The notes beneath the pieces are model-generated. The model was not told the origin of the DNA, made no database searches, and saw only the letters and a list, made by a program, of their open reading frames with translations. A program made the position numbers and the translations under genes. From a virus (Duplodnaviria > Caudoviricetes): a DNA stretch of 64,000 nt. The stretch's first letter is position 1; each line of letters starts with the position of its first letter. Below are positions 1 through 9,667 of the stretch, one piece after another. The stretch lies in IMG/VR virus record IMGVR_UViG_3300025410_000009, one strand, 5' to 3'.

Positions 1-119
1 TTTTCAGTCGAGACCACTATTTCACAGTCAGGCTGATACTTGTTGTACAAGGCTCTAACGATCCCGGTGGACAATATGACATCGCCCAAGGCCTGTTGGC
101 GTACTACCAAAATCTTCAT
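1..119 (-). CDS. Glycosyltransferase family 9 (heptosyltransferase-like), partial; 3' part runs off the window start
   Basis: Manual translation from ATG at 119 gives MKILVVRQQALGDVILSTGIVRALYNKYQPDCEIVVST, matching the WaaC/WaaF-type N-terminus (ILV...LGDV). ATGA overlap with the stop of the upstream methyltransferase. Not in the ORF track. Confidence 0.7.
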   Translation of the reverse strand, partial: MKILVVRQQALGDVILSTGIVRALYNKYQPDCEIVVSTE

Positions 120-1354
120 GTGGACTCTACGCTGACTCGAGGGAAGTAACGCAAGAATCGATCATGTTCGATACGACCACGTTCGGCCAGTATGCGATCG
201 CGTATCTCGTTATAGAAGTTCCAAGCTAAGGGTATGAACAAGATTGGCTGTGACTCAGGAATGGTCTTTAACACATCGATACCAACTACGGGCACATGAA
301 GTCCCGGGCTTACAAGACCCTGCTTCATGGGATTGTCATCAATGATCATGTCAGGGCTAATTTTGACAAAATTCAGCAAGGTATTGCCTTTGGCCGCAGC
401 ACCATATCCGATTATTTTATAATTGCGTTCATGGAACAACTCAAAATGCATTCGGGTGCGGAACGCTGTTTCGTTTACAGTACGACTCCAACTGCGATAA
501 GTTTCTATGTTGTACAAGCCGCTTAGTTTTTCCAATTGCACCTTGTTGTCAATTCGGCTGGGGTAGCTTTGGTTTACGCCCAACACAAACACATAGCTGG
601 TGCCGTGTATGGGTGTTTTTTGTACATCCACTAGATTGAATCCAGTACGAGCACACAGTCTACGCATACTTTCGATATTGTAGAAGTTGACGTGTTCATG
701 ATAGATGGTGTCAAATTCGTTGTTCAATACCATGTCCGATTGGCTGGTTTGAATAAAGAACAAGCCGTCAGGATTGATAATTTTACGTAGCGCAGTCAAG
801 TAGCCCACTGGATCGGGCACATGAGCAAAACTGTTTTGTGCCACCACAAGATCCATCTGACCATGCTGAGCCATAAACCGATCAGCTGAATCAGCATTAA
901 AGAAGTCACACATGATGGTGTGCTCTTGACTACTGGTGGGGTAGAGATTTTCAGCAGGGTCAATACCGTAGGTGTCTAGTCCCAACTGTTTGAAGTAGTG
1001 CAACTGTGTGCCGTCGTTGCAACCAATGTCCAGCACTCGACTGGGAGCGTCGTGAAAGTATTCACGTGCAAAGGTGGCAAACCACTCCATGTATTGGTGT
1101 TGAGTACGACTGGTACCGCTCACATACAAATAGTGTGTGTAAATCAAGCCAGGATCCACAGCATGTGTCAATTGCAAATGGCAGCAGTCATGACACACAT
1201 TTACCGCCAAGGGATAGAACGATTCGGGGTCGGTGGCGGTGGCCAAAAAATTATTGGCCAAGGGTTGATCGTTAAGGTCTAAGACCAATTCCAAATGATT
1301 GCCACCACAGGCCAAACATTCAGTCAAGTGTTTTGCTCCAGCAATATCTGTCAT
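116..1354 (-). CDS. NDP-hexose C-methyltransferase (TylCIII/NovU/TcaB9 type)
   Basis: Zn ligands CLAC...CHDC, SAM motif VLDIGCNDG, HEH and YGAAAKG motifs. Start moved to MTDIAG (1354), which has a GGAA RBS. Confidence 0.85.
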   Translation of the reverse strand: MTDIAGAKHLTECLACGGNHLELVLDLNDQPLANNFLATATDPESFYPLAVNVCHDCCHLQLTHAVDPGLIYTHYLYVSGTSRTQHQYMEWFATFAREYFHDAPSRVLDIGCNDGTQLHYFKQLGLDTYGIDPAENLYPTSSQEHTIMCDFFNADSADRFMAQHGQMDLVVAQNSFAHVPDPVGYLTALRKIINPDGLFFIQTSQSDMVLNNEFDTIYHEHVNFYNIESMRRLCARTGFNLVDVQKTPIHGTSYVFVLGVNQSYPSRIDNKVQLEKLSGLYNIETYRSWSRTVNETAFRTRMHFELFHERNYKIIGYGAAAKGNTLLNFVKISPDMIIDDNPMKQGLVSPGLHVPVVGIDVLKTIPESQPILFIPLAWNFYNEIRDRILAERGRIEHDRFLRYFPRVSVEST

Positions 1355-1355
1355 G

Positions 1356-2111
1356 TCAATTCCTAATAGGGGCACCGTTGGGGGCAATGTTACCAGTCAC
1401 ACCCATTACGTCTCGGTTAATGACCTTGTTGGCATCTAAAAATTTATACAGGCAGTGCTCGATGTCGGCATAACCGCCAGCGGCCAAACGCTCGTACATG
1501 TATTGCAAACTGTTTTCGTAGGCTTGGATGACTTCTTCGTTGAGTGTAGTGGGCCAAGACCAAAGACGACACATGTACTGTGCTTCAACCAGGGTCACCG
1601 AGTACGGAAACTGACTGGACTGTTTGTGACCAATCACCATGCTGTGTTGATTCTTGTAGTCATCATAGAAGCCGATATCAAAACGCTCGTCCAAGATGTA
1701 TCTGCCGCTGACCTTGAACACACGCTGAAACTCGCCCAGCATGTCAACATCACGTGTCAATTTCTTAAGTGCGTTACCAAAACACATGACTTCGGTCACA
1801 TTCTTGACCACGTCCCAGTTATCGGTACTGTTGTACAAGCCAACCACGTCGGGGTCGGTGGTGAAGTCAATCACGTGATCAACTTGAGCAGTCAAGGTTT
1901 CGGCTTGACTGGCTGTCAGTGACACTCCGGAAATTTCTAATAAGAAAATCTTACAACCTGGGATGCGCTCACGCACACTGGCAATGGTGTCCAGTGTTTG
2001 TGCTAGTCGTTGTTCTGAACTGTAAACACCAAACTTGGTGTTAATTGCGCTGGTAATGATTACCGCATATTGATTTACTTGCTGAGCCAACGTGTGTTCT
2101 CCAAGGTCCAT
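1356..2111 (-). CDS. Hypothetical protein, possible glycosyltransferase-like fold
   Basis: 251-aa ORF coupled between the dehydratase and the methyltransferase. N-terminal VIITSAIN...RLAQTLDTIASVRERIP resembles a GT-A start. The true start may be the TTG a few codons downstream. Confidence 0.45.
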   Translation of the reverse strand: MDLGEHTLAQQVNQYAVIITSAINTKFGVYSSEQRLAQTLDTIASVRERIPGCKIFLLEISGVSLTASQAETLTAQVDHVIDFTTDPDVVGLYNSTDNWDVVKNVTEVMCFGNALKKLTRDVDMLGEFQRVFKVSGRYILDERFDIGFYDDYKNQHSMVIGHKQSSQFPYSVTLVEAQYMCRLWSWPTTLNEEVIQAYENSLQYMYERLAAGGYADIEHCLYKFLDANKVINRDVMGVTGNIAPNGAPIRN

Positions 2112-3109
2112 TTTGTCATTTCTGTGATGCGATCACTCAACTTAATTTTTGGTTCCCAACCCAGGCTCTTTAACAAGCCACCATCAAGTGCATAACGCAA
2201 GTCATGTCCCGGGCGGCTGCCATGGAAGTCAACCATTTCATAGTTCAACACTTTGTCTTGTGCCTTGGCAATCATTTGAGCCAGGGTCAAGTTGTCAATT
2301 TCTTCAGTGCCCACCAAGTTGAATTTGGGGCAACGAGCATGACCATAGTCGCCATGATGTTTGTAATCTTTAAGTCCCAAGATAAACATCAAGCCTTCGG
2401 CTACATCTCGTGCATGAATGTACATGCGTGTGCCAGCATGGCGACGTGTGGGATCTGCGTGAATGTAGACTTTTTCTCCGTCTCGGGCACGTTGAATCAC
2501 CATGGGAATAAACTTCTCAGGGTGCTGGCGTTCGCCAAACACATTCATGGTATGAGTGACCACAATGGGCATTTTGTAAGTATTCTCATATGCCACACAG
2601 AATTCTTCAGCTGCCGCCTTTGAAGCTGAATACGGATTAGTTGAGTTGTATCTATCATATTCTTTATAGCTCACTCCGGGTGGTGCAACACCAAAAATTT
2701 CATCAGTTGAAAAATAAACAAAACGCTCTAGATTAGGCAAGTGTTTACGTGCATAGTCCAGCATGTTGACAGTGCCCACGGTGTTGTCTAACACAAATTC
2801 CATGGGGTATGTGATGCTACGATCCACGTGACTGCTGGCACCCAAATGCAACACGATGTCAATGGGACCAATGTCCTTGACAATCATTTCATTTAGTTCG
2901 GCCTTGAAGTCATGGAACACAATACGCAGACGTCCAGCAACGTCAACGGGATCATGCTCTTGTAGCATGTCGTGCAAGCGATTAAGGTTACCGGAAATGT
3001 CTAGTCGATCTAGACACACAATATTCCAGTCGGTGTCGGACAAGATTTTGTCGACCACATGGTGTGCAATAAAACCGGCACCACCGGTGATTAGTACGTT
3101 TTTGCTCAT
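2075..3109 (-). CDS. rmlB: NDP-glucose 4,6-dehydratase (extended SDR, RmlB-like)
   Basis: GGAGFI Rossmann motif, HVDRS, STDE, catalytic YSASK, RPGHDLRY. Confidence 0.85.
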   Translation of the reverse strand: MSKNVLITGGAGFIAHHVVDKILSDTDWNIVCLDRLDISGNLNRLHDMLQEHDPVDVAGRLRIVFHDFKAELNEMIVKDIGPIDIVLHLGASSHVDRSITYPMEFVLDNTVGTVNMLDYARKHLPNLERFVYFSTDEIFGVAPPGVSYKEYDRYNSTNPYSASKAAAEEFCVAYENTYKMPIVVTHTMNVFGERQHPEKFIPMVIQRARDGEKVYIHADPTRRHAGTRMYIHARDVAEGLMFILGLKDYKHHGDYGHARCPKFNLVGTEEIDNLTLAQMIAKAQDKVLNYEMVDFHGSRPGHDLRYALDGGLLKSLGWEPKIKLSDRITEMTKWTLENTRWLSK

Positions 3110-3173: not shown

Positions 3174-3326
3174 TCATGCAGCCGATTTGTTTGATTCCAA
3201 GTACTCTTTGATCACACGTAACGCTTTGCGACTGGTGTCGTATACATATTCTTTGGTTTCGTCTTCGGTAGTGACCACCAGAATAAAACCATTTGCGGCC
3301 TTGCGGATTTCGATTGATTCAAACAT
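3174..3326 (-). CDS. Small hypothetical protein, 50 aa
   Basis: Manual translation MFESIEIRKAANGFILVVTTEDETKEYVYDTSRKALRVIKEYLESNKSAA, with a GGAA RBS and its own sigma70-like promoter. Not in the ORF track. Confidence 0.7.
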   Translation of the reverse strand: MFESIEIRKAANGFILVVTTEDETKEYVYDTSRKALRVIKEYLESNKSAA

Positions 3327-3357: not shown

Positions 3358-3386
3358 AGTATACTGTATCTAGTGTTAGCGGTCAA
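3358..3386 (-). promoter_or_regulatory. sigma70-type promoter TTGACC-N17-TATACT
   Basis: Near-consensus hexamers with a 17-nt spacer, upstream of the 50-aa ORF. Confidence 0.65.
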
Positions 3387-3390
3387 CCTA

Positions 3391-3855
3391 TTATTTTAAC
3401 TGTTTTACCATACGCACAAATTCAGGCACATACCCGTTGGCTTTGGCTATGTCCCGAATTCGTGTGTTATCAACGTGCAACATGCTGCCAGCACGAGTGC
3501 ACTTGTTGCGGCGTGCAGAAACTTCAAAAAATTGATGCAACTGGGCATACAACCCACGTCCTTGATATTGATTGTGTACATTAGTAAAAACAATCCAGGC
3601 CAAATCACTGTCAAATCTAAAGGTTATACTGGCTGCAATGGTGTCGCCATACTTGATATAGATTGTGGGATTGTTAGTAAACGGTACGGTACTGCCAATA
3701 GGCGCATGCCCGGCATCCAGCAGGTCGGCATACTGTCTCAATACTGTAGTATATAATGTGGGCACATCTTTGATACTACTGGTGTACCAAGCAGTATAGG
3801 TATCGCCCAATTTATCAGTCCCAGTTTTAATTTGAAAGTGAGTAATTTCAGTCAC
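3391..3855 (-). CDS. GNAT-family acyltransferase
   Basis: Motif A VHNQYQGRGLY, then N...A...GY; 8-nt overlap with the desaturase stop. Confidence 0.75.
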   Translation of the reverse strand: MTEITHFQIKTGTDKLGDTYTAWYTSSIKDVPTLYTTVLRQYADLLDAGHAPIGSTVPFTNNPTIYIKYGDTIAASITFRFDSDLAWIVFTNVHNQYQGRGLYAQLHQFFEVSARRNKCTRAGSMLHVDNTRIRDIAKANGYVPEFVRMVKQLK

Positions 3856-4657
3856 GGCGTGAGCGTCCTAATACAGGTAAAAATATAACACAGGGATCAA
3901 ACTCCCACCACCGACCACTGGTGCCGCGGCCAAAATCAAAATTGGCTGGTCTAGCATGATGATTGTTGTGCCAGCCTTGACCCCAGCCCAAATAGCCCAA
4001 TACAAAATTATTTTGGCTATGATCTCGAGTGTCGAAGTTTCTATAACCAATCAAGGCCTTGACATGTCCAAACACATTGACAGCATTGTCCTGCAATAGT
4101 CCAACCATGCCGGGAATGAAACACATGCTCATGGCCAAACGCCAATCGTACAGGGCAATCACGGCCGGTGTCAACCACAATATCTCGTAGCAGTACTTGT
4201 GAAAGAACACAAAATTGGGTTTCTTGAGTAAGTCAACTGCATATTTCAAATTGACCACATTGAATGTGTCACTGTTGATCCAGCCCATGAAGGCTTGCCA
4301 TCGGCTGTAGGCCACTGGGCTATGATAATCTTTTGCAGTATCAGCGTGGGGGTGATGATATCCTCGATGTAGTGCTACCCAAAAAATACAAGAACCCTGA
4401 CCCGACAAGGTGGCAAAGAATAGTATGATGTTTTCTTTCCAAGTGGGTATCACATGTGTTTTGTGACTAAAAATTCTATGATAACCCACAGCAATACCCA
4501 GTCCCGAAATCAAGCACCACATGATCAATGATGACCATAGGTATACCAAGGGTATGATGCCTATAGCAAACAACACCGTGGTCACCAGGCCCATGGTCAG
4601 CAAAGGTACCACGCCAAACCACATGCCGCGATTGACATTAAATCTATTAAAAAACAT
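3848..4657 (-). CDS. Membrane-bound delta-9-type fatty acid desaturase
   Basis: Three His boxes (HRIFSH, HRGYHH, HNNHH) plus hydrophobic TM segments. Start moved to the ATG at 4657, giving a TAATG overlap with the upstream stop. Confidence 0.9.
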   Translation of the reverse strand: MFFNRFNVNRGMWFGVVPLLTMGLVTTVLFAIGIIPLVYLWSSLIMWCLISGLGIAVGYHRIFSHKTHVIPTWKENIILFFATLSGQGSCIFWVALHRGYHHPHADTAKDYHSPVAYSRWQAFMGWINSDTFNVVNLKYAVDLLKKPNFVFFHKYCYEILWLTPAVIALYDWRLAMSMCFIPGMVGLLQDNAVNVFGHVKALIGYRNFDTRDHSQNNFVLGYLGWGQGWHNNHHARPANFDFGRGTSGRWWEFDPCVIFLPVLGRSRRD

Positions 4658-5253
4658 TATATGTTGCCCCCAATTGGTAATACTGTGCGGAATTCTTGTT
4701 TTAAAAAACTGCATCGCACAATACTGTCTGTGGGCAGCAGGCTACGCTTAAACAATAACTCCCAATCTCGATTGTAATAAGTTTTGTATTTAGCTGGTAC
4801 CATGTACTCGTCAACATAGTGATAACGATTGCTGTTGTATTCACTCCAGTACAGTCTACGTAGAATACGTGCATGGTCAGCATTGACCAAAGAATACACC
4901 TTTAATCTACCCTGTGCTTCTTGCATGGCAATAATGACATCCAAGATGTCTTTGAGTAGTGCATTGTTGCCATTGGATCTTGCCAGGGTATAGTACCAGC
5001 TGGGCTCATCGACACTGGTATAGTAACACACAAATGCATGCACGATACCCGCTTCGTCTATAGCACCATAGGCACCAAAGTTATTGAGATCACCAATATA
5101 GGCATTGCAAAATCTGTCGAATGTGGCATGAGCAAAAGTTTCGGGGTCAGTGTCCCACGTCTGTTGGTTTACCTCGGCACCCATGTATTTTTCATTGAAA
5201 AACAAATCGCGCACACCTGCACGATGTTCTTCGGTGAGCTTAACTATGTTCAT
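4657..5253 (-). CDS. Hypothetical protein, possibly GNAT-like fold
   Basis: N-terminal IVKLTEEHRAGVRDLF and AYGAIDEAGIVHAFV resemble the GNAT beta1-alpha1 and beta2-beta3 elements; no clear motif A. Confidence 0.45.
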   Translation of the reverse strand: MNIVKLTEEHRAGVRDLFFNEKYMGAEVNQQTWDTDPETFAHATFDRFCNAYIGDLNNFGAYGAIDEAGIVHAFVCYYTSVDEPSWYYTLARSNGNNALLKDILDVIIAMQEAQGRLKVYSLVNADHARILRRLYWSEYNSNRYHYVDEYMVPAKYKTYYNRDWELLFKRSLLPTDSIVRCSFLKQEFRTVLPIGGNI

Positions 5254-6169
5254 GATCAATTCCCAATTGTTTGTATAATTCAGTTAAAGGTATGCCGTCA
5301 AGACTGGATTCTAATCTACGCACATGAGTTTGGTTCAGCGTATTGTAGGTTTCTTCATTGAATCCCAGCAATTTTTCGTAGCCGGTGGTCTTGGCCTTGC
5401 GTATCAAGTTGGGCATGTACTGATACAGCACTGAATTTTTAGTGCTCACGCTGCCCAGCTTGTAATTGAATCTTTCACGGACCATGCTGGCTATTGTGGG
5501 ATGACGTAGATAATACACCATCATTTCAGGAGTATAGCTGAACCACTCGTTTACCAGTGGCAAATTGTATTTGAGGCTAAAGCGCATGGCGCTGGCATCT
5601 TCGTTTTCGCGAATCACATAGTACCAATAACTGTCGCCGTTGGCAGGTACTTGTCGACGCAACAGCATCTCACCACCCATCACAGCCGGTAGGCCCATTT
5701 TTTTAATTTGGTTGTAGACTGTGAGATAAGCCATCTGACGACAAGCAATCTCACCAGCAAATTCGGCTGCGGCGCCACTGCGGTAAAATTCTCGAATGTT
5801 GACGTCGGCTACTTCGAGCTCGAGATCTAGTTGTTCGCACACCAACCGTGCATTGATATAGTCAATGTTGTTGTAGCGATTTTCAAATCGTATGAATACT
5901 GCACGAGGTCGAACACCAATTTTGAGAAATGCACGTAGCACTATCTCACTGTCAGTCCCGCCCGAAAACATGACCACAAAATCTTTGCCAAATTGATCAC
6001 GCACAGCTTCGGCAGTACGATATTGTTCATTCAGCCAGTTGCTGGTACGTAGTTGGTCTGGGTCAACTGTACCCACTGCCACACGATAACGATCAGTGGG
6101 CCATTCTCTAGTGCCGTAAAGTCTATCTTCGATCCAGTATTTTAAATGATTGCCTAGGGTAAATTCCAT
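5240..6169 (-). CDS. PP-loop (adenine nucleotide alpha hydrolase-like) ATPase
   Basis: VVMFSGGTDSEIVL PP-loop motif; no glutamine amidotransferase domain. Confidence 0.75.
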   Translation of the reverse strand: MEFTLGNHLKYWIEDRLYGTREWPTDRYRVAVGTVDPDQLRTSNWLNEQYRTAEAVRDQFGKDFVVMFSGGTDSEIVLRAFLKIGVRPRAVFIRFENRYNNIDYINARLVCEQLDLELEVADVNIREFYRSGAAAEFAGEIACRQMAYLTVYNQIKKMGLPAVMGGEMLLRRQVPANGDSYWYYVIRENEDASAMRFSLKYNLPLVNEWFSYTPEMMVYYLRHPTIASMVRERFNYKLGSVSTKNSVLYQYMPNLIRKAKTTGYEKLLGFNEETYNTLNQTHVRRLESSLDGIPLTELYKQLGIDHEHS

Positions 6170-6183
6170 GTCAAATCATTTTC

Positions 6184-6408
6184 TTAGATCAAAACCATCA
6201 GATCCCCAAAAGTCACTGGTGCAGAATCAGGATCGGGAATTTCACGTCCCAGAGTCTCTTCGATCCACATTTGCAGTTCAATCGAATCTAGGCTATCTAG
6301 TCCCACATCAGTCAATTTGACTTCGGGTGTGATTTCCACAGTCAGCGGTTTCTTTTTAACTGCTTCTAGGCCTTTTATGATTAACTCGAGTTTTTCAGTA
6401 TCAGTCAT
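6184..6408 (-). CDS. Acyl carrier protein
   Basis: 74-aa acidic protein with the phosphopantetheine site GLDSLD, then IELQMWIEE and TFGDL helices typical of AcpP. Confidence 0.88.
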   Translation of the reverse strand: MTDTEKLELIIKGLEAVKKKPLTVEITPEVKLTDVGLDSLDSIELQMWIEETLGREIPDPDSAPVTFGDLMVLI

Positions 6409-6423
6409 GATGTTCCTTGTTGA

Positions 6424-7035
6424 TCAAATATTTATTTGACCCCGGCTCCATGCTTGTAATTCAGCCAAGTTGATTTGACTGTCGGTTTGACACACTGGCT
6501 TTATCACACACCATTGCGGTGTCGATCGTATACGTACTTGTTTTTCAACAGCCACACAGTCGTCCCACCACGAACTCCAACCGCGGGTGACTCGATACAG
6601 CCCACGTGCCACTGCCACATGCAGGCCTCGATTGTAGTCATTGAATGTCAACAACATAAAATTACAACCACGCTCACGTGCCCAAATCAACTGTTGATCA
6701 AGAAATTGACTGGGCAATTGCTGTGTTCTATGTTGGTCGGTGATCCATATACGTATGCCACCAATGGCCCAGGCCTGGGTATTTTCAGGATACTCTACAC
6801 AACTCACTGCCACAATTTGGTTGCTGTGCTCGGCCACATAAATGGCGCCTTGATCGCTGTTCCACCGCAGTTGATTTTTTATGTTGTACAGCAGGCCGGC
6901 TGTGGAATCCATGCCCATGTTTGCCGCTGCCGGCTCAGTGCTGTTGGCAATTTCCTGATTGACAAAGTCTGACAGCTTGGAAAATTCTGTGTCAGTGATG
7001 GTGTTGCTGGTAGTGGACCAGAATGTGTAATTCAT
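6424..7035 (-). CDS. GNAT-family acyltransferase
   Basis: IYVAEHSNQIVAV, RIWITDQHRTQQL (motif A-like), TFNDYN. Start moved to MNYTFW (7035) because the longer ORF runs into the tRNA. Confidence 0.7.
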   Translation of the reverse strand: MNYTFWSTTSNTITDTEFSKLSDFVNQEIANSTEPAAANMGMDSTAGLLYNIKNQLRWNSDQGAIYVAEHSNQIVAVSCVEYPENTQAWAIGGIRIWITDQHRTQQLPSQFLDQQLIWARERGCNFMLLTFNDYNRGLHVAVARGLYRVTRGWSSWWDDCVAVEKQVRIRSTPQWCVIKPVCQTDSQINLAELQAWSRGQINI

Positions 7036-7041
7036 GTTGTA

Positions 7042-7339
7042 TGGTGCTCCGAGCCAGACTCGAACCGGCACGCCTTTCGGCGAGAGATTTTCTTACCACT
7101 ATAGCTTTCGCTACCTTTACAGTTTTGTGGTCTGGACTATACCTTCATCATAGCATCAATGCCTTAGATGCCCGCCGTCTAGTCTCTACACGTTCAAAAG
7201 TATTTCTACTTAGGCTTCGCTCGGTATTAGCATTTTACAGCCTTCACCGAATTTGACGGGTTCTACTCCTATCGTTTCCAATAGGGCACTCAAATTTTAC
7301 TCTCAAGTCTCTTGTGTCTACCTATTTCACCATCAGAGC
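7042..7339 (-). tRNA. trnL-UAA: tRNA-Leu(UAA), split by a group I intron (exons 7339-7305 and 7091-7042; 85 nt after splicing)
   Basis: 5' exon GCTCTGATGGTGAAATAGGTAGACACAAGAGACTT; 3' exon AAAATCTCTCGCCGAAAGGCGTGCCGGTTCGAGTCTGGCTCGGAGCACCA. Acceptor stem GCTCTGA/TCGGAGC, anticodon stem AGAGA/TCTCT, loop CT-TAA-AA, long variable arm, encoded CCA. Confidence 0.92.
7092..7304 (-). ncRNA. Group I self-splicing intron (IC3/Azoarcus-like), 213 nt, no ORF
   Basis: Core elements AAATTCGGTGAA, AATACCGAGCGAAG, GTAGAGACTAGACGG and AAGGTATAGTCC. P7 GACTA/TAGTC; P3 CCCGTC/GGCGGG; IGS GAGT pairs with exon ACTT (U.G at the splice site); terminal omega-G at 7092; GAAA tetraloops in P2 and P9. Confidence 0.92.
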
Positions 7340-7346
7340 AATTAAA

Positions 7347-7423
7347 TGGTGCGCCCACTAGGACTTGAACCTAGGACCAATGGATTATGAGTCCACTGCT
7401 CTGACCAACTGAGCTATAGGCGC
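7347..7423 (-). tRNA. trnI-CAU: tRNA with CAU anticodon, most likely tRNA-Ile2 (lysidine type)
   Basis: GCGCCTATAGCTCAGTTGGTCAGAGCAGTGGACTCATAATCCATTGGTCCTAGGTTCAAGTCCTAGTGGGCGCACCA forms a full cloverleaf with CCA. The GACTCATAATC anticodon arm is like bacterial Ile2; elongator Met cannot be excluded. Confidence 0.88.
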
Positions 7424-7435
7424 TACTAAGTGTTA

Positions 7436-7464
7436 ATTATAGCACTAGGTGTGCGTGGTGTCAA
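7436..7464 (-). promoter_or_regulatory. Consensus sigma70 promoter TTGACA-N17-TATAAT driving the tRNAs and probably the ACP cluster
   Basis: Perfect hexamers with a 17-nt spacer, 12 nt upstream of the CAU tRNA. Confidence 0.85.
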
Positions 7465-9103: not shown

Positions 9104-9667
9104 ATGCCATTACAAACTGTTAGACGGGTACTACCGCATGAGTACTCTAAATATCGTACGCACCTTAAAGCCCTTGACTCAGACTCTAGGACCCTTAGGT
9201 TTGCTAATCCAGTCTCTGATTTTATAATTGATCAGTTTTGCGATGGTGTTGAGGCAGAACCCAGCCGACACATACTGTTTGCAGTGGAAGATAGCGAGTT
9301 AAACTTTATTGCTGTGGGACATATTGCCCGTTTTGAGCCCATGGAGTTGGCTTTTAGCGTGTTAAAAGAATACCAAGGACAAGGCCTTGGTAATCGTTTG
9401 ATGGAACGTTGTATACAGTGGTGTCGTGTGCACGACATACTGGAAGGTACCATGATTTGTTTGACGCATAACAGCGCCATACGTCACTTGTGCCGCAAAC
9501 ACGGTATTGCTGTCACCACCGAAGCAGGTGAAGCCTTGGCTGATATTCGTTTGCCACCTGCTGACATGACCACATTCATAAGCGAAACTGTGGACAACAA
9601 TGTGTCAACTTTGGATTGGTTTGCCAAACGAGTGGCTAGGCTGGCCCCCCGGTTAACAACTCAATAA
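9104..9667 (+). CDS. GNAT acetyltransferase (resembles the Pat-type acetyltransferase domain)
   Basis: LDSDSRTLRF N-terminus, ELAFSVLKEYQGQGLG motif A, HNSAIRHLCRKHG. Confidence 0.8.
   Translation: MPLQTVRRVLPHEYSKYRTHLKALDSDSRTLRFANPVSDFIIDQFCDGVEAEPSRHILFAVEDSELNFIAVGHIARFEPMELAFSVLKEYQGQGLGNRLMERCIQWCRVHDILEGTMICLTHNSAIRHLCRKHGIAVTTEAGEALADIRLPPADMTTFISETVDNNVSTLDWFAKRVARLAPRLTTQ

Follow-up and report, generated by a model that had tools for sequence, protein, structure and literature searches.

Within a 64,000-nucleotide stretch (hereafter the window) of the tailed-phage record IMGVR_UViG_3300025410_000009 from IMG/VR (210,216 bp; CheckV completeness estimate 60%), six minus-strand open reading frames (ORFs) fill positions 7035..3391 in the order G1-G2-G3-G4-G5-G6. 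They encode, in turn, a GNAT-fold protein, an acyl/peptidyl carrier protein (ACP), a PP-loop enzyme, a GNAT-like protein, a membrane desaturase and another GNAT, family calls that an earlier note, made from the DNA letters alone, had already given rightly. We found that these genes belong to one co-inherited, selected enzyme module, so far known almost solely from phages, many of them large, uncultured and from freshwater, and that its invariant core is G3, G4 and G5; G1 and the ACP are frequent accessories, and G6 and the nearby sugar genes are lineage-specific neighbours. As its product we favour, with somewhat less than even confidence, a neutral, N-acylated, carboxyl-amidated and unsaturated lipid-like molecule, predicted to be made early in infection. 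A related reading is possible but doubtful: the module would be a carrier-assisted, early, phage-borne small-molecule pathway, extended by hydroxylases and radical-SAM enzymes in many relatives, that yields an unsaturated N-acyl amide, or else a lipopeptide, with an effect on the host membrane or neighbouring cells or against defence. The interpretation of the earlier note, that an acyl chain is loaded and desaturated on the phage ACP and passed to a small molecule, lipid or protein, is partly supported.

We collected 66 loci and searched them with iterated profiles; dereplication and the requirement of 2.5 kb or more of flank on each side left 43. All 43 of these G3 loci have G4 and 42 have G5, followed by G1 in 33, the ACP in 25 and G6 in 7; the neighbourhood conservation that the earlier note proposed to look for is hence real for G3-G4-G5 and does not extend to the six genes as a unit. 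The commonest gene order is G1-ACP-G3-G4-G5, with G1-G3-G4-G5 and G5-G3-G4 as variants, and the adjacency of G3 and G4 is kept even in the last class, where G5 has moved upstream. G3, G4 and G5 co-occur in loci whose G3 is anywhere between 87% and about 46% identical. G6, where present, lies mostly elsewhere in the locus; it is missing from the closest relatives (L005 and L006) and adjacent in L008. Additional copies also occur, with extra tandem G4, G3 and G5 genes in one locus (L039:7001-11539), and with up to three more desaturase paralogues and several PP-loop paralogues of 300-390 aa near the module in the flanks of three others (L009, L049 and L067).

The genes of the window are closely packed, as the earlier note had described: the junctions from G1 to G6 are gaps of 15 and 14 nt followed by overlaps of 14, 1 and 8 nt, stop/start overlaps link G3-G4-G5, and the ATG of G5 overlaps the stop codon of G4 (TAATG). 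The ratio of nonsynonymous to synonymous substitution rates (dN/dS) against L006 is 0.06-0.18 for G2-G5 and 0.06-0.09 for G3, G4 and G5. For G1 and G6, compared with their nearest relative, the corresponding ratio of differences (pN/pS) is about 0.3, with synonymous sites saturated.

In metagenomes, G3 relatives form 772 clusters (90% identity) at E<=1e-3, the best 120 being 57-89% identical, and a hidden Markov model search of 1.84 billion representatives gave 987 G3 clusters at 50% identity. tblastn searches with G3 and G4 against 50,697 GenBank phage records returned no match, and a DNA search returned tRNA and intron similarities alone; the earlier note had known of no characterised system with this gene set, and we found none either. 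A scan of 185,579 species genomes with a pattern from the G3 alignment yielded one distant Myxococcota match (28% identity, 145 aa), and "phage-only" is a provisional description because such a scan detects close relatives alone. Distant relatives of G3 are again associated with GNATs: in three of them (P0215, P0222 and P0255) an N-terminal GNAT is fused to the PP-loop part, and in a further locus (L074:5256-8246) a 662-aa relative stands between two GNAT genes, in each case on phage-like contigs without a desaturase.

The PP-loop of G3, SGGTDSE, occupies residues 69-75, and 27 homologues show no variation at S69, G70, G71, D73, S74 and E75 and almost none at T72. All Pfam hits on the protein are sub-threshold, to QueC and to Asn_synthase (PF00733, E 0.021, 14.9 bits against a cut-off of 21), and the G3 family profile finds no sequence-level match to AsnB in the PDB. 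The AlphaFold (AF2) model has a predicted local distance difference test score (pLDDT) of 82.5. In VIA-align it reaches Z scores of 14.4 to human ASNS, 13.7 to E. coli AsnB, 12.7 to beta-lactam synthetase, 12.3 to carbapenam synthetase and 10.6 to TsnB9, with AsnB-type alignments spanning 231-261 residues, whereas other PP-loop enzymes (LarE, QueC, TilS and others) score about 9 (<=9.8). In AlphaFold-DB the clusters that match best consist of stand-alone "asparagine synthetase domain" proteins, with a template-modelling (TM) score of 0.65, and the top Foldseek sequence-structure matches are LarE-type PP-loop enzymes. No glutaminase domain (class II N-terminal nucleophile type, with Cys1) is found in G3, which has about 60 residues before the PP-loop, starts with MEFTLG and has no Cys2. 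Structurally, the modelled G3 is thus an AsnB-type synthetase domain without the glutaminase domain, and the structural check that the earlier note had suggested for the 309-aa protein and for a 200-aa one (G3 and G4) upholds a PP-loop enzyme and a GNAT fold, narrowing the former to the AsnB type. Enzymes of the AsnB-type family adenylate a carboxylate and then close it with a nitrogen nucleophile, and the fold of G3 therefore points to amide formation at a carboxylate. We rejected G3 as a QueC or a DNA/tRNA-modification enzyme: the Pfam QueC hit covers the PP-loop only, the fold is AsnB-type and the partner is a membrane desaturase. A complex prediction for G3 with the ACP scored 0.00, which is evidence neither way.

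G5 matches Pfam FA_desaturase (PF00487) with 33.4 bits against a cut-off of 29.7, and its family profile finds mouse and human SCD1 in the PDB (4ymk at E 4.4e-21 over profile positions 25-259, the second at E 8e-19). The earlier note had pointed to intact His boxes, and in all 29 homologues HRxxxH, HRGYHH, NxxxH and HNNHH are invariant and align with those of SCD1, as are the di-iron ligands H79, H84, H116, H120, H121, N213, H217, H249, H252 and H253; hydrophobic segments lie at 11-58 and 77-96. By its sequence G5 is an SCD1/Delta9-type membrane desaturase of predicted activity. Roitman and colleagues reportedly described Delta9 lipid desaturases of cyanophages in 2018. We set aside a cyanophage reading here, as the 210-kb record holds no psbA and G5 shows no similarity to cyanophage desaturases: tblastn of G5 against GenBank phages gives weak matches alone, 26-28% identical, and no cyanophage gene. 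One of these matches falls in "Acinetobacter phage MD-2021a" (CAKLQH020000002.1; L068), where the region carries annotations of ordinary bacterial genes (trpB, trpC, btuB and baeSR) and looks like bacterial DNA filed as phage. The cultured, T4-like Pelagibacter phage Mosig (L069, MT647606.1, 54.7-65.3 kb) carries a comparable island of an FA_desaturase-domain protein, Asp_Arg_Hydrox, TauD, aminotransferases, radical-SAM-like genes and a GNAT, in which no G3 or G4 homologue was detected.

G2 is a carrier protein by Pfam PP-binding (PF00550, 31.1 bits against a cut-off of 20.8), by a PHROG ACP match (E 1.2e-7) and by NCBIfam acyl_carrier (E 9e-8, under the equivalog cut-off). The serine that the earlier note saw as retained lies in D38-S39-L40, invariant in 24 homologues. 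In one relative (L023:6237-7004) G1 and the ACP form one 255-aa in-frame ORF, in which the G1 stop is lost and the ATG and ribosome-binding site (RBS) of the ACP are kept; this is an apparent natural fusion or an assembly variant, seen on a single contig.

Among the GNATs, G1 has a weak match to Pfam Acetyltransf_1 (E 1.3e-3), which 8 of 28 members of its family also match; its ESM Atlas model has TM 0.60-0.71 to GNAT clusters, and the subgroup of the window pairs with the main G1 family at an hhalign probability of 97%. It is a divergent GNAT, whose family shows R-x-x-Y-x-x-G for the Q/R-x-x-G-x-G/A pyrophosphate-binding loop after beta4, and we rejected the idea that it is a paralogue of G4 (hhalign probability 1%). 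G4 matches nothing in Pfam, PHROG or NCBIfam. Its AF2 model (pLDDT 84.9) reaches Z scores of up to 13.4 over 148 residues to small N-acetyltransferases, its structural neighbours by VIA-align and Foldseek include RimI, Ard1, Naa, Ttr, EctA and SpeG, and Foldseek gives TM 0.5-0.6 to RimI, SpeG, PaiA and Ttr, so that, as modelled, G4 has an ordinary classical small GNAT fold. G6 matches Pfam Acetyltransf_1 with 23.4 bits against a cut-off of 20.7. The earlier note had likened these proteins to the acyl-ACP-dependent synthases LuxI, OlsB and FeeM, a comparison that we abandon: G1, G4 and G6 have no Pfam match at E<=1 to the LuxI (PF00765), OlsB (PF13444) or FeeM families, and no structure of these types is among the 50 best structural neighbours of G4. 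The opposite strand has a fourth GNAT gene, some 2 kb upstream of the module (9104-9667, +; Pfam Acetyltransf_1, E 1.2e-8).

In the pathway that we favour, an acyl thioester would be the donor, held on the phage carrier protein where there is one and otherwise on host ACP or CoA. A GNAT would move the acyl group onto the amine of a carboxyl-bearing acceptor, for example an amino acid, and G3 would adenylate the remaining carboxylate and close an amide with ammonia or another amine; together these steps would follow the logic of an N-cap by a GNAT and a C-cap by an AsnB homologue, as in the synthesis of N-acetylglutaminylglutamine amide (NAGGN). G5 would put the double bond in the fatty chain, either while the chain is a thioester or when it is already part of a membrane-resident product, and the finished molecule might be membrane-active, a signal or an anti-defence agent. 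We prefer this amide-lipid line because a NAGGN-like pairing of GNAT and AsnB homologue recurs, and because AsnB homologues, GNATs and desaturases can all use carrier-bound acyl groups; strict coupling, duplication as a set and the GNAT-PP-loop fusions suggest that the enzymes share one substrate line. In NAGGN synthesis by AsnO and Ngg, capping of the amine is the task of the GNAT, and amidation of the carboxylate that of the AsnB homologue (PMC8070244). The AsnB homologue GbnC amidates an ACP-bound succinyl group (bioRxiv 10.64898/2026.04.24.720606), SbzI is a carrier-protein-dependent GNAT (PMC11685415), and JamB and the polyyne desaturase triad are ACP-dependent membrane desaturases (bioRxiv 10.1101/291195; PMC9828172).

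Several observations weigh against this line. The ACP is missing from 18/43 loci (42%), and the contig of one of the relatives (L035; 524,565 bp, CheckV 100%) has G1-G3-G4-G5 and no PP-binding gene anywhere. Because this complete 525-kb phage has the module without a carrier-protein gene, on-ACP chemistry is not obligatory, and the obligate JamB/JamC-style desaturation on the ACP that the earlier note had invoked falls as a general mechanism. Loading of the ACP is also a difficulty, because the 210-kb record, 60% complete by CheckV, contains no phosphopantetheinyl transferase (PF01648), so that holo-ACP would need a host enzyme, and no ANL ligase (PF00501), which is absent from the six module proteins as well. 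G4 keeps part of the Q/RxxGxG/A loop (R94-S-N-G97-N-N), with R94 nearly invariant, the glycine as consensus and the last position not G/A. In structure it comes closest to small N-acetyltransferases that depend on acetyl-CoA, not to enzymes of long-chain acyl-ACP, which leaves a fatty-acyl donor for the GNATs conjectural. Finally, the operon of many relatives runs on into Asp/Asn-beta-hydroxylase-like, TauD and radical-SAM/SPASM genes, for which a peptide substrate fits equally.

A first alternative, which corresponds to the proposal of the earlier note and which we regard as unlikely, is thiotemplated fatty-acid tailoring, in which G3 would stand in for an ANL-type ligase, adenylate a free fatty acid and load it as a thioester on the phage ACP in a LarE-like manner, G5 would desaturate the acyl-ACP, and G1 and G4 would off-load it to an amine. 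It would account for the position of the ACP directly ahead of G3 in the commonest gene order, for the lack of an ANL ligase in the genome record and for the LarE-type enzymes at the top of the Foldseek sequence-structure matches, although the full structural alignment makes G3 an amide-forming AsnB-type enzyme, with Z scores of 14 against about 9 for LarE. The two to four desaturase paralogues of several relatives resemble those of polyyne clusters (PMC9828172) and JamA/B/C offer a precedent (bioRxiv 10.1101/291195); the retention of G3-G4-G5 without any carrier protein, in the 18 loci and the complete genome described above, argues the other way, and no thioesterase was seen.

The second alternative, distinctly unlikely in our view, is the tailoring of a peptide or protein, such as a RiPP-like lipopeptide or a protein of the host or the virion, where a GNAT would acylate an N-terminus or a Lys/Orn side chain, the AsnB-like enzyme would amidate a C-terminal or side-chain carboxylate or convert it in some other way, and hydroxylases and radical-SAM/SPASM enzymes would add further marks. 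In nitrilobacillin synthesis the C-terminus of a peptide is the target of an AS-like enzyme, beside beta-hydroxylases (PMC13060819), and GNATs fatty-acylate peptides made on the ribosome and modified after translation (RiPPs; PMC8784127). The extended operons of the relatives are of this kind, with Asp_Arg_Hydrox, TauD and radical-SAM-SPASM genes; one of them (L062:8421-12930) reads G5-G3-G4-AspH-TauD-x-rSAM with stop/start overlaps, the flanks of L002-L004 are similar, and RimI, Ard1 and Naa, which acetylate protein N-termini, are among the structural neighbours of G4. Set against this, the phage of the window has no hydroxylase or radical-SAM gene adjoining the module, no precursor-peptide gene was identified, and the membrane Delta9-type desaturase and the ACP would have no obvious role unless a lipid is made first. 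A 50-aa ORF directly after the module (Table 1) was rejected as a RiPP precursor, being confined to the sub-clade of the window and without the look of a leader and core. Its homologues stand directly after G5 or G6 in L005, L006, L008 and L019 (E 1e-24 to 1e-27), L022 has one distant copy, and the ORF is a possible member of the module.

Remodelling of the host envelope is a third and rather improbable alternative. Here each enzyme would work on lipids or wall precursors that the host already has: G5 would raise the unsaturation of phospholipids, G3 would convert a carboxylate of lipid II, of lipid A or of an aminolipid to an amide, amines would be acetylated by the GNATs, and the carrier would act like DltC or AlmF. 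AsnB homologues amidate meso-diaminopimelate in peptidoglycan precursors, and LpxO and OlsC are lipid hydroxylases of the Asp-hydroxylase family, both of which we count in its favour. The G5 family includes acyl-lipid and acyl-CoA Delta9 desaturases, and many relatives have a cell-wall hydrolase gene immediately upstream. Genes of lipopolysaccharide or glycan type also adjoin the module here: downstream, at 116-3109 (-), an RmlB-like 4,6-dehydratase, a 251-aa protein and a nucleoside-diphosphate-hexose C-methyltransferase (Methyltransf_13/23/14), and past the window edge (L001:8-2672, +) a GT9-like protein, a 262-aa protein and a GT1. Such sugar genes are, however, near the module in the closest relatives alone (D1 in 8/66 and D3 in 2/66 loci). 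They also have promoter-like sites of their own, one of which stands with a small ORF between G6 and the sugar genes, and we therefore do not count them as part of the module. Moreover, the coupling, the set-wise duplication and the fusions of GNAT to PP-loop favour one substrate line over separate targets.

That the genes are unrelated auxiliary functions sharing a hypervariable island is very improbable: the module region of related phages is indeed an island rich in variable enzymes, in which G6 and the sugar genes behave as movable neighbours, but G3, G4 and G5 stay together in 42-43/43 loci, translationally coupled and in two or more gene orders, and distant G3 relatives again lie beside or fused to GNATs. 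We also rejected a bacterial sphingolipid-like pathway, with a dedicated ACP and a GNAT ceramide synthase, since no serine-palmitoyltransferase-like gene is among the annotated neighbours, a genome-wide search not having been made.

The source phage is T4-like, large and tailed, with a large terminase, tail tube, UvsX-like recombinase, gp32-like single-stranded DNA-binding protein and UvsW-like helicase, and at least six freshwater metagenome runs contain the stretch nearly word-for-word. The features of the module and its surroundings are collected in Table 1. We take the ATG as the start of G1 because a longer GTG ORF from 7071 would enter the tRNA, and a 288-aa G5 ORF from 4714 is probably over-extended, as its relatives are of about 265 aa.

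Table 1. The module and neighbouring features in the window.
Feature	Position	Strand	Details
Sigma70-type promoter, TTGACA-17-TATAAT with TG extension	7436..7464	-	12/12 match; top-scoring in first 12 kb
tRNA-Met (anticodon CAU)	7347..7423	-	ARAGORN; Rfam tRNA 74.3 bits
tRNA-Leu(UAA), group I intron after U34	7042..7339; exons 7339..7305 + 7091..7042	-	Rfam and in-silico splicing
G1, GNAT-fold protein	6424..7035	-	203 aa from ATG
G2, acyl/peptidyl carrier protein (ACP)	6184..6408	-	74 aa, pI 4.2
G3, PP-loop ATP pyrophosphatase, putative AsnB synthetase-domain type	5240..6169	-	309 aa
G4, predicted GNAT-fold acyltransferase	4657..5253	-	198 aa
G5, predicted membrane di-iron desaturase, SCD1/Delta9 type	3848..4657	-	269 aa
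G6, GNAT acetyltransferase	3391..3855	-	154 aa, translationally coupled here
50-aa ORF directly after the module	3174..3326	-	own RBS and promoter-like site 3386..3358 (10/12)

The perfect sigma70 promoter that the earlier note placed upstream matches at every position and stands at the head of the transcription unit of the tRNAs and the module. A relative that is 84% identical (L006) has a 12/12 promoter ahead of G1 as well, and no tRNAs there; as a promoter of equal quality precedes G1 in both phages, early transcription by the host polymerase is a reasonable inference. The module in the window phage and its near relative is thus presumably read from this promoter early in infection, a view based on the promoter sequences. 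No convincing terminator was found, in agreement with the earlier note, since the 9 terminator-like sites in the region are not above the shuffle expectation of 11 +/- 3.4; two weak hairpins, which it had not listed, do occur within coding sequence (5225..5206 and 4411..4394, inside G4 and G5).

Both tRNA genes announced in the earlier note are present; the second, a tRNA-Leu(UAA), is no plain gene, as a group I intron interrupts it. This intron of about 213 nt (Rfam RF00028, 53.6 bits, 7308..7117) carries no ORF; on the unspliced DNA ARAGORN finds tRNA-Met(CAU) alone, and tRNA-Leu(taa) is recovered once the sequence is spliced in silico at 7305/7091. The split gene is upstream context and lies outside the enzyme module. 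Intron-like similarity was seen by blastn in Agrobacterium phage Atu_ph07, a 735-kb uncultured phage and Pelagibacter phage HTVC120P. The sole Shine-Dalgarno-like GGAG ahead of the G1 start sits in the 3' acceptor stem of tRNA-Leu (7036-7060, -), and tRNA processing would therefore leave G1 nearly leaderless.

Phage auxiliary genes are usually read singly, a desaturase for instance as tuning membrane fluidity, whereas here the desaturase is locked into a multi-enzyme module. Its G3 family is plentiful in metagenomes, but cultured phages lack it and cellular genomes hardly ever have it. If the product is indeed a discrete lipid or lipopeptide, phages would carry genuine natural-product-like pathways, a first for lipid-like products; the module would then give experimental access to the large, puzzling islands of T4-like aquatic phages that are rich in oxygenase and radical-SAM genes, and would supply a new AsnB-type substrate class. 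Should it merely remodel host lipids, this would still be a new and widespread host-takeover function.

We found no description in the literature of this combination, of its restriction to uncultured phages or of its abundance, and the nearest known systems each share a part of it. In JamA/JamB/JamC and the polyyne cay/pgn cassettes (bioRxiv 10.1101/291195; PMC9828172) the genes for an adenylating enzyme and for a membrane desaturase with His boxes likewise adjoin that of a small dedicated ACP, and some related phage loci have several desaturase paralogues as polyyne cassettes do; the adenylating enzyme of the module is, however, PP-loop/AsnB-type and not ANL, a thioesterase is lacking, two GNATs are added and the ACP is missing in 42% of loci. 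The amidated starter-unit cassettes of GbnA (ACP), GbnB (acyltransferase, AT) and GbnC (an asparagine synthetase homologue), and likewise malonamyl-ACP systems (bioRxiv 10.64898/2026.04.24.720606), resemble the module in a stand-alone carrier placed by an AsnB homologue and a loading acyltransferase, with the homologue amidating an acyl group on the carrier at its free carboxylate. They differ in that G3 is without the domain that hydrolyses glutamine, a GNAT and not an AT is the candidate loader, no polyketide synthase is present, a membrane desaturase belongs to the core and the setting is a phage. AsnO and Ngg of NAGGN synthesis (PMC8070244) offer adjacent GNAT and AsnB-type genes, with N-acylation followed by amidation of the terminal carboxylate, but Ngg has peptide-ligase activity, for which no ATP-grasp or ligase domain was detected in the module, AsnO has a glutaminase domain, and the pathway works without ACP and desaturase towards a soluble osmolyte.

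Among acyltransferases, OlsB (PF13444), FeeM/NAS and LuxI (PF00765) are acyl-ACP-dependent N-acyl synthases with GNAT-like folds (reviewed in PMC11631085), whereas G4 and G1 look like classical small GNATs. With SCD1 and the bacterial and cyanobacterial Delta9 desaturases (PDB 4ymk, 4zyo) G5 shares the His/Asn metal ligands and a near full-length alignment (E 4e-21); unlike them it is short (about 265 aa), its clade is so far met on phage-like contigs alone, and it is always coupled to G3/G4. The AS-like enzymes of peptide C-termini and the fatty-acylating GNATs of RiPPs (PMC13060819; PMC8784127) recall the extended islands of the relatives, in which AsnB-like, GNAT and beta-hydroxylase genes form one cluster, and differ from the module in that no precursor peptide was found, the window has no adjoining hydroxylase or radical-SAM gene, and an ACP and a desaturase are present. 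Each enzyme family and each pairwise logic, ligase-ACP-desaturase, loader-ACP-AsnB homologue and GNAT-AsnB homologue, is thus already known from other systems.

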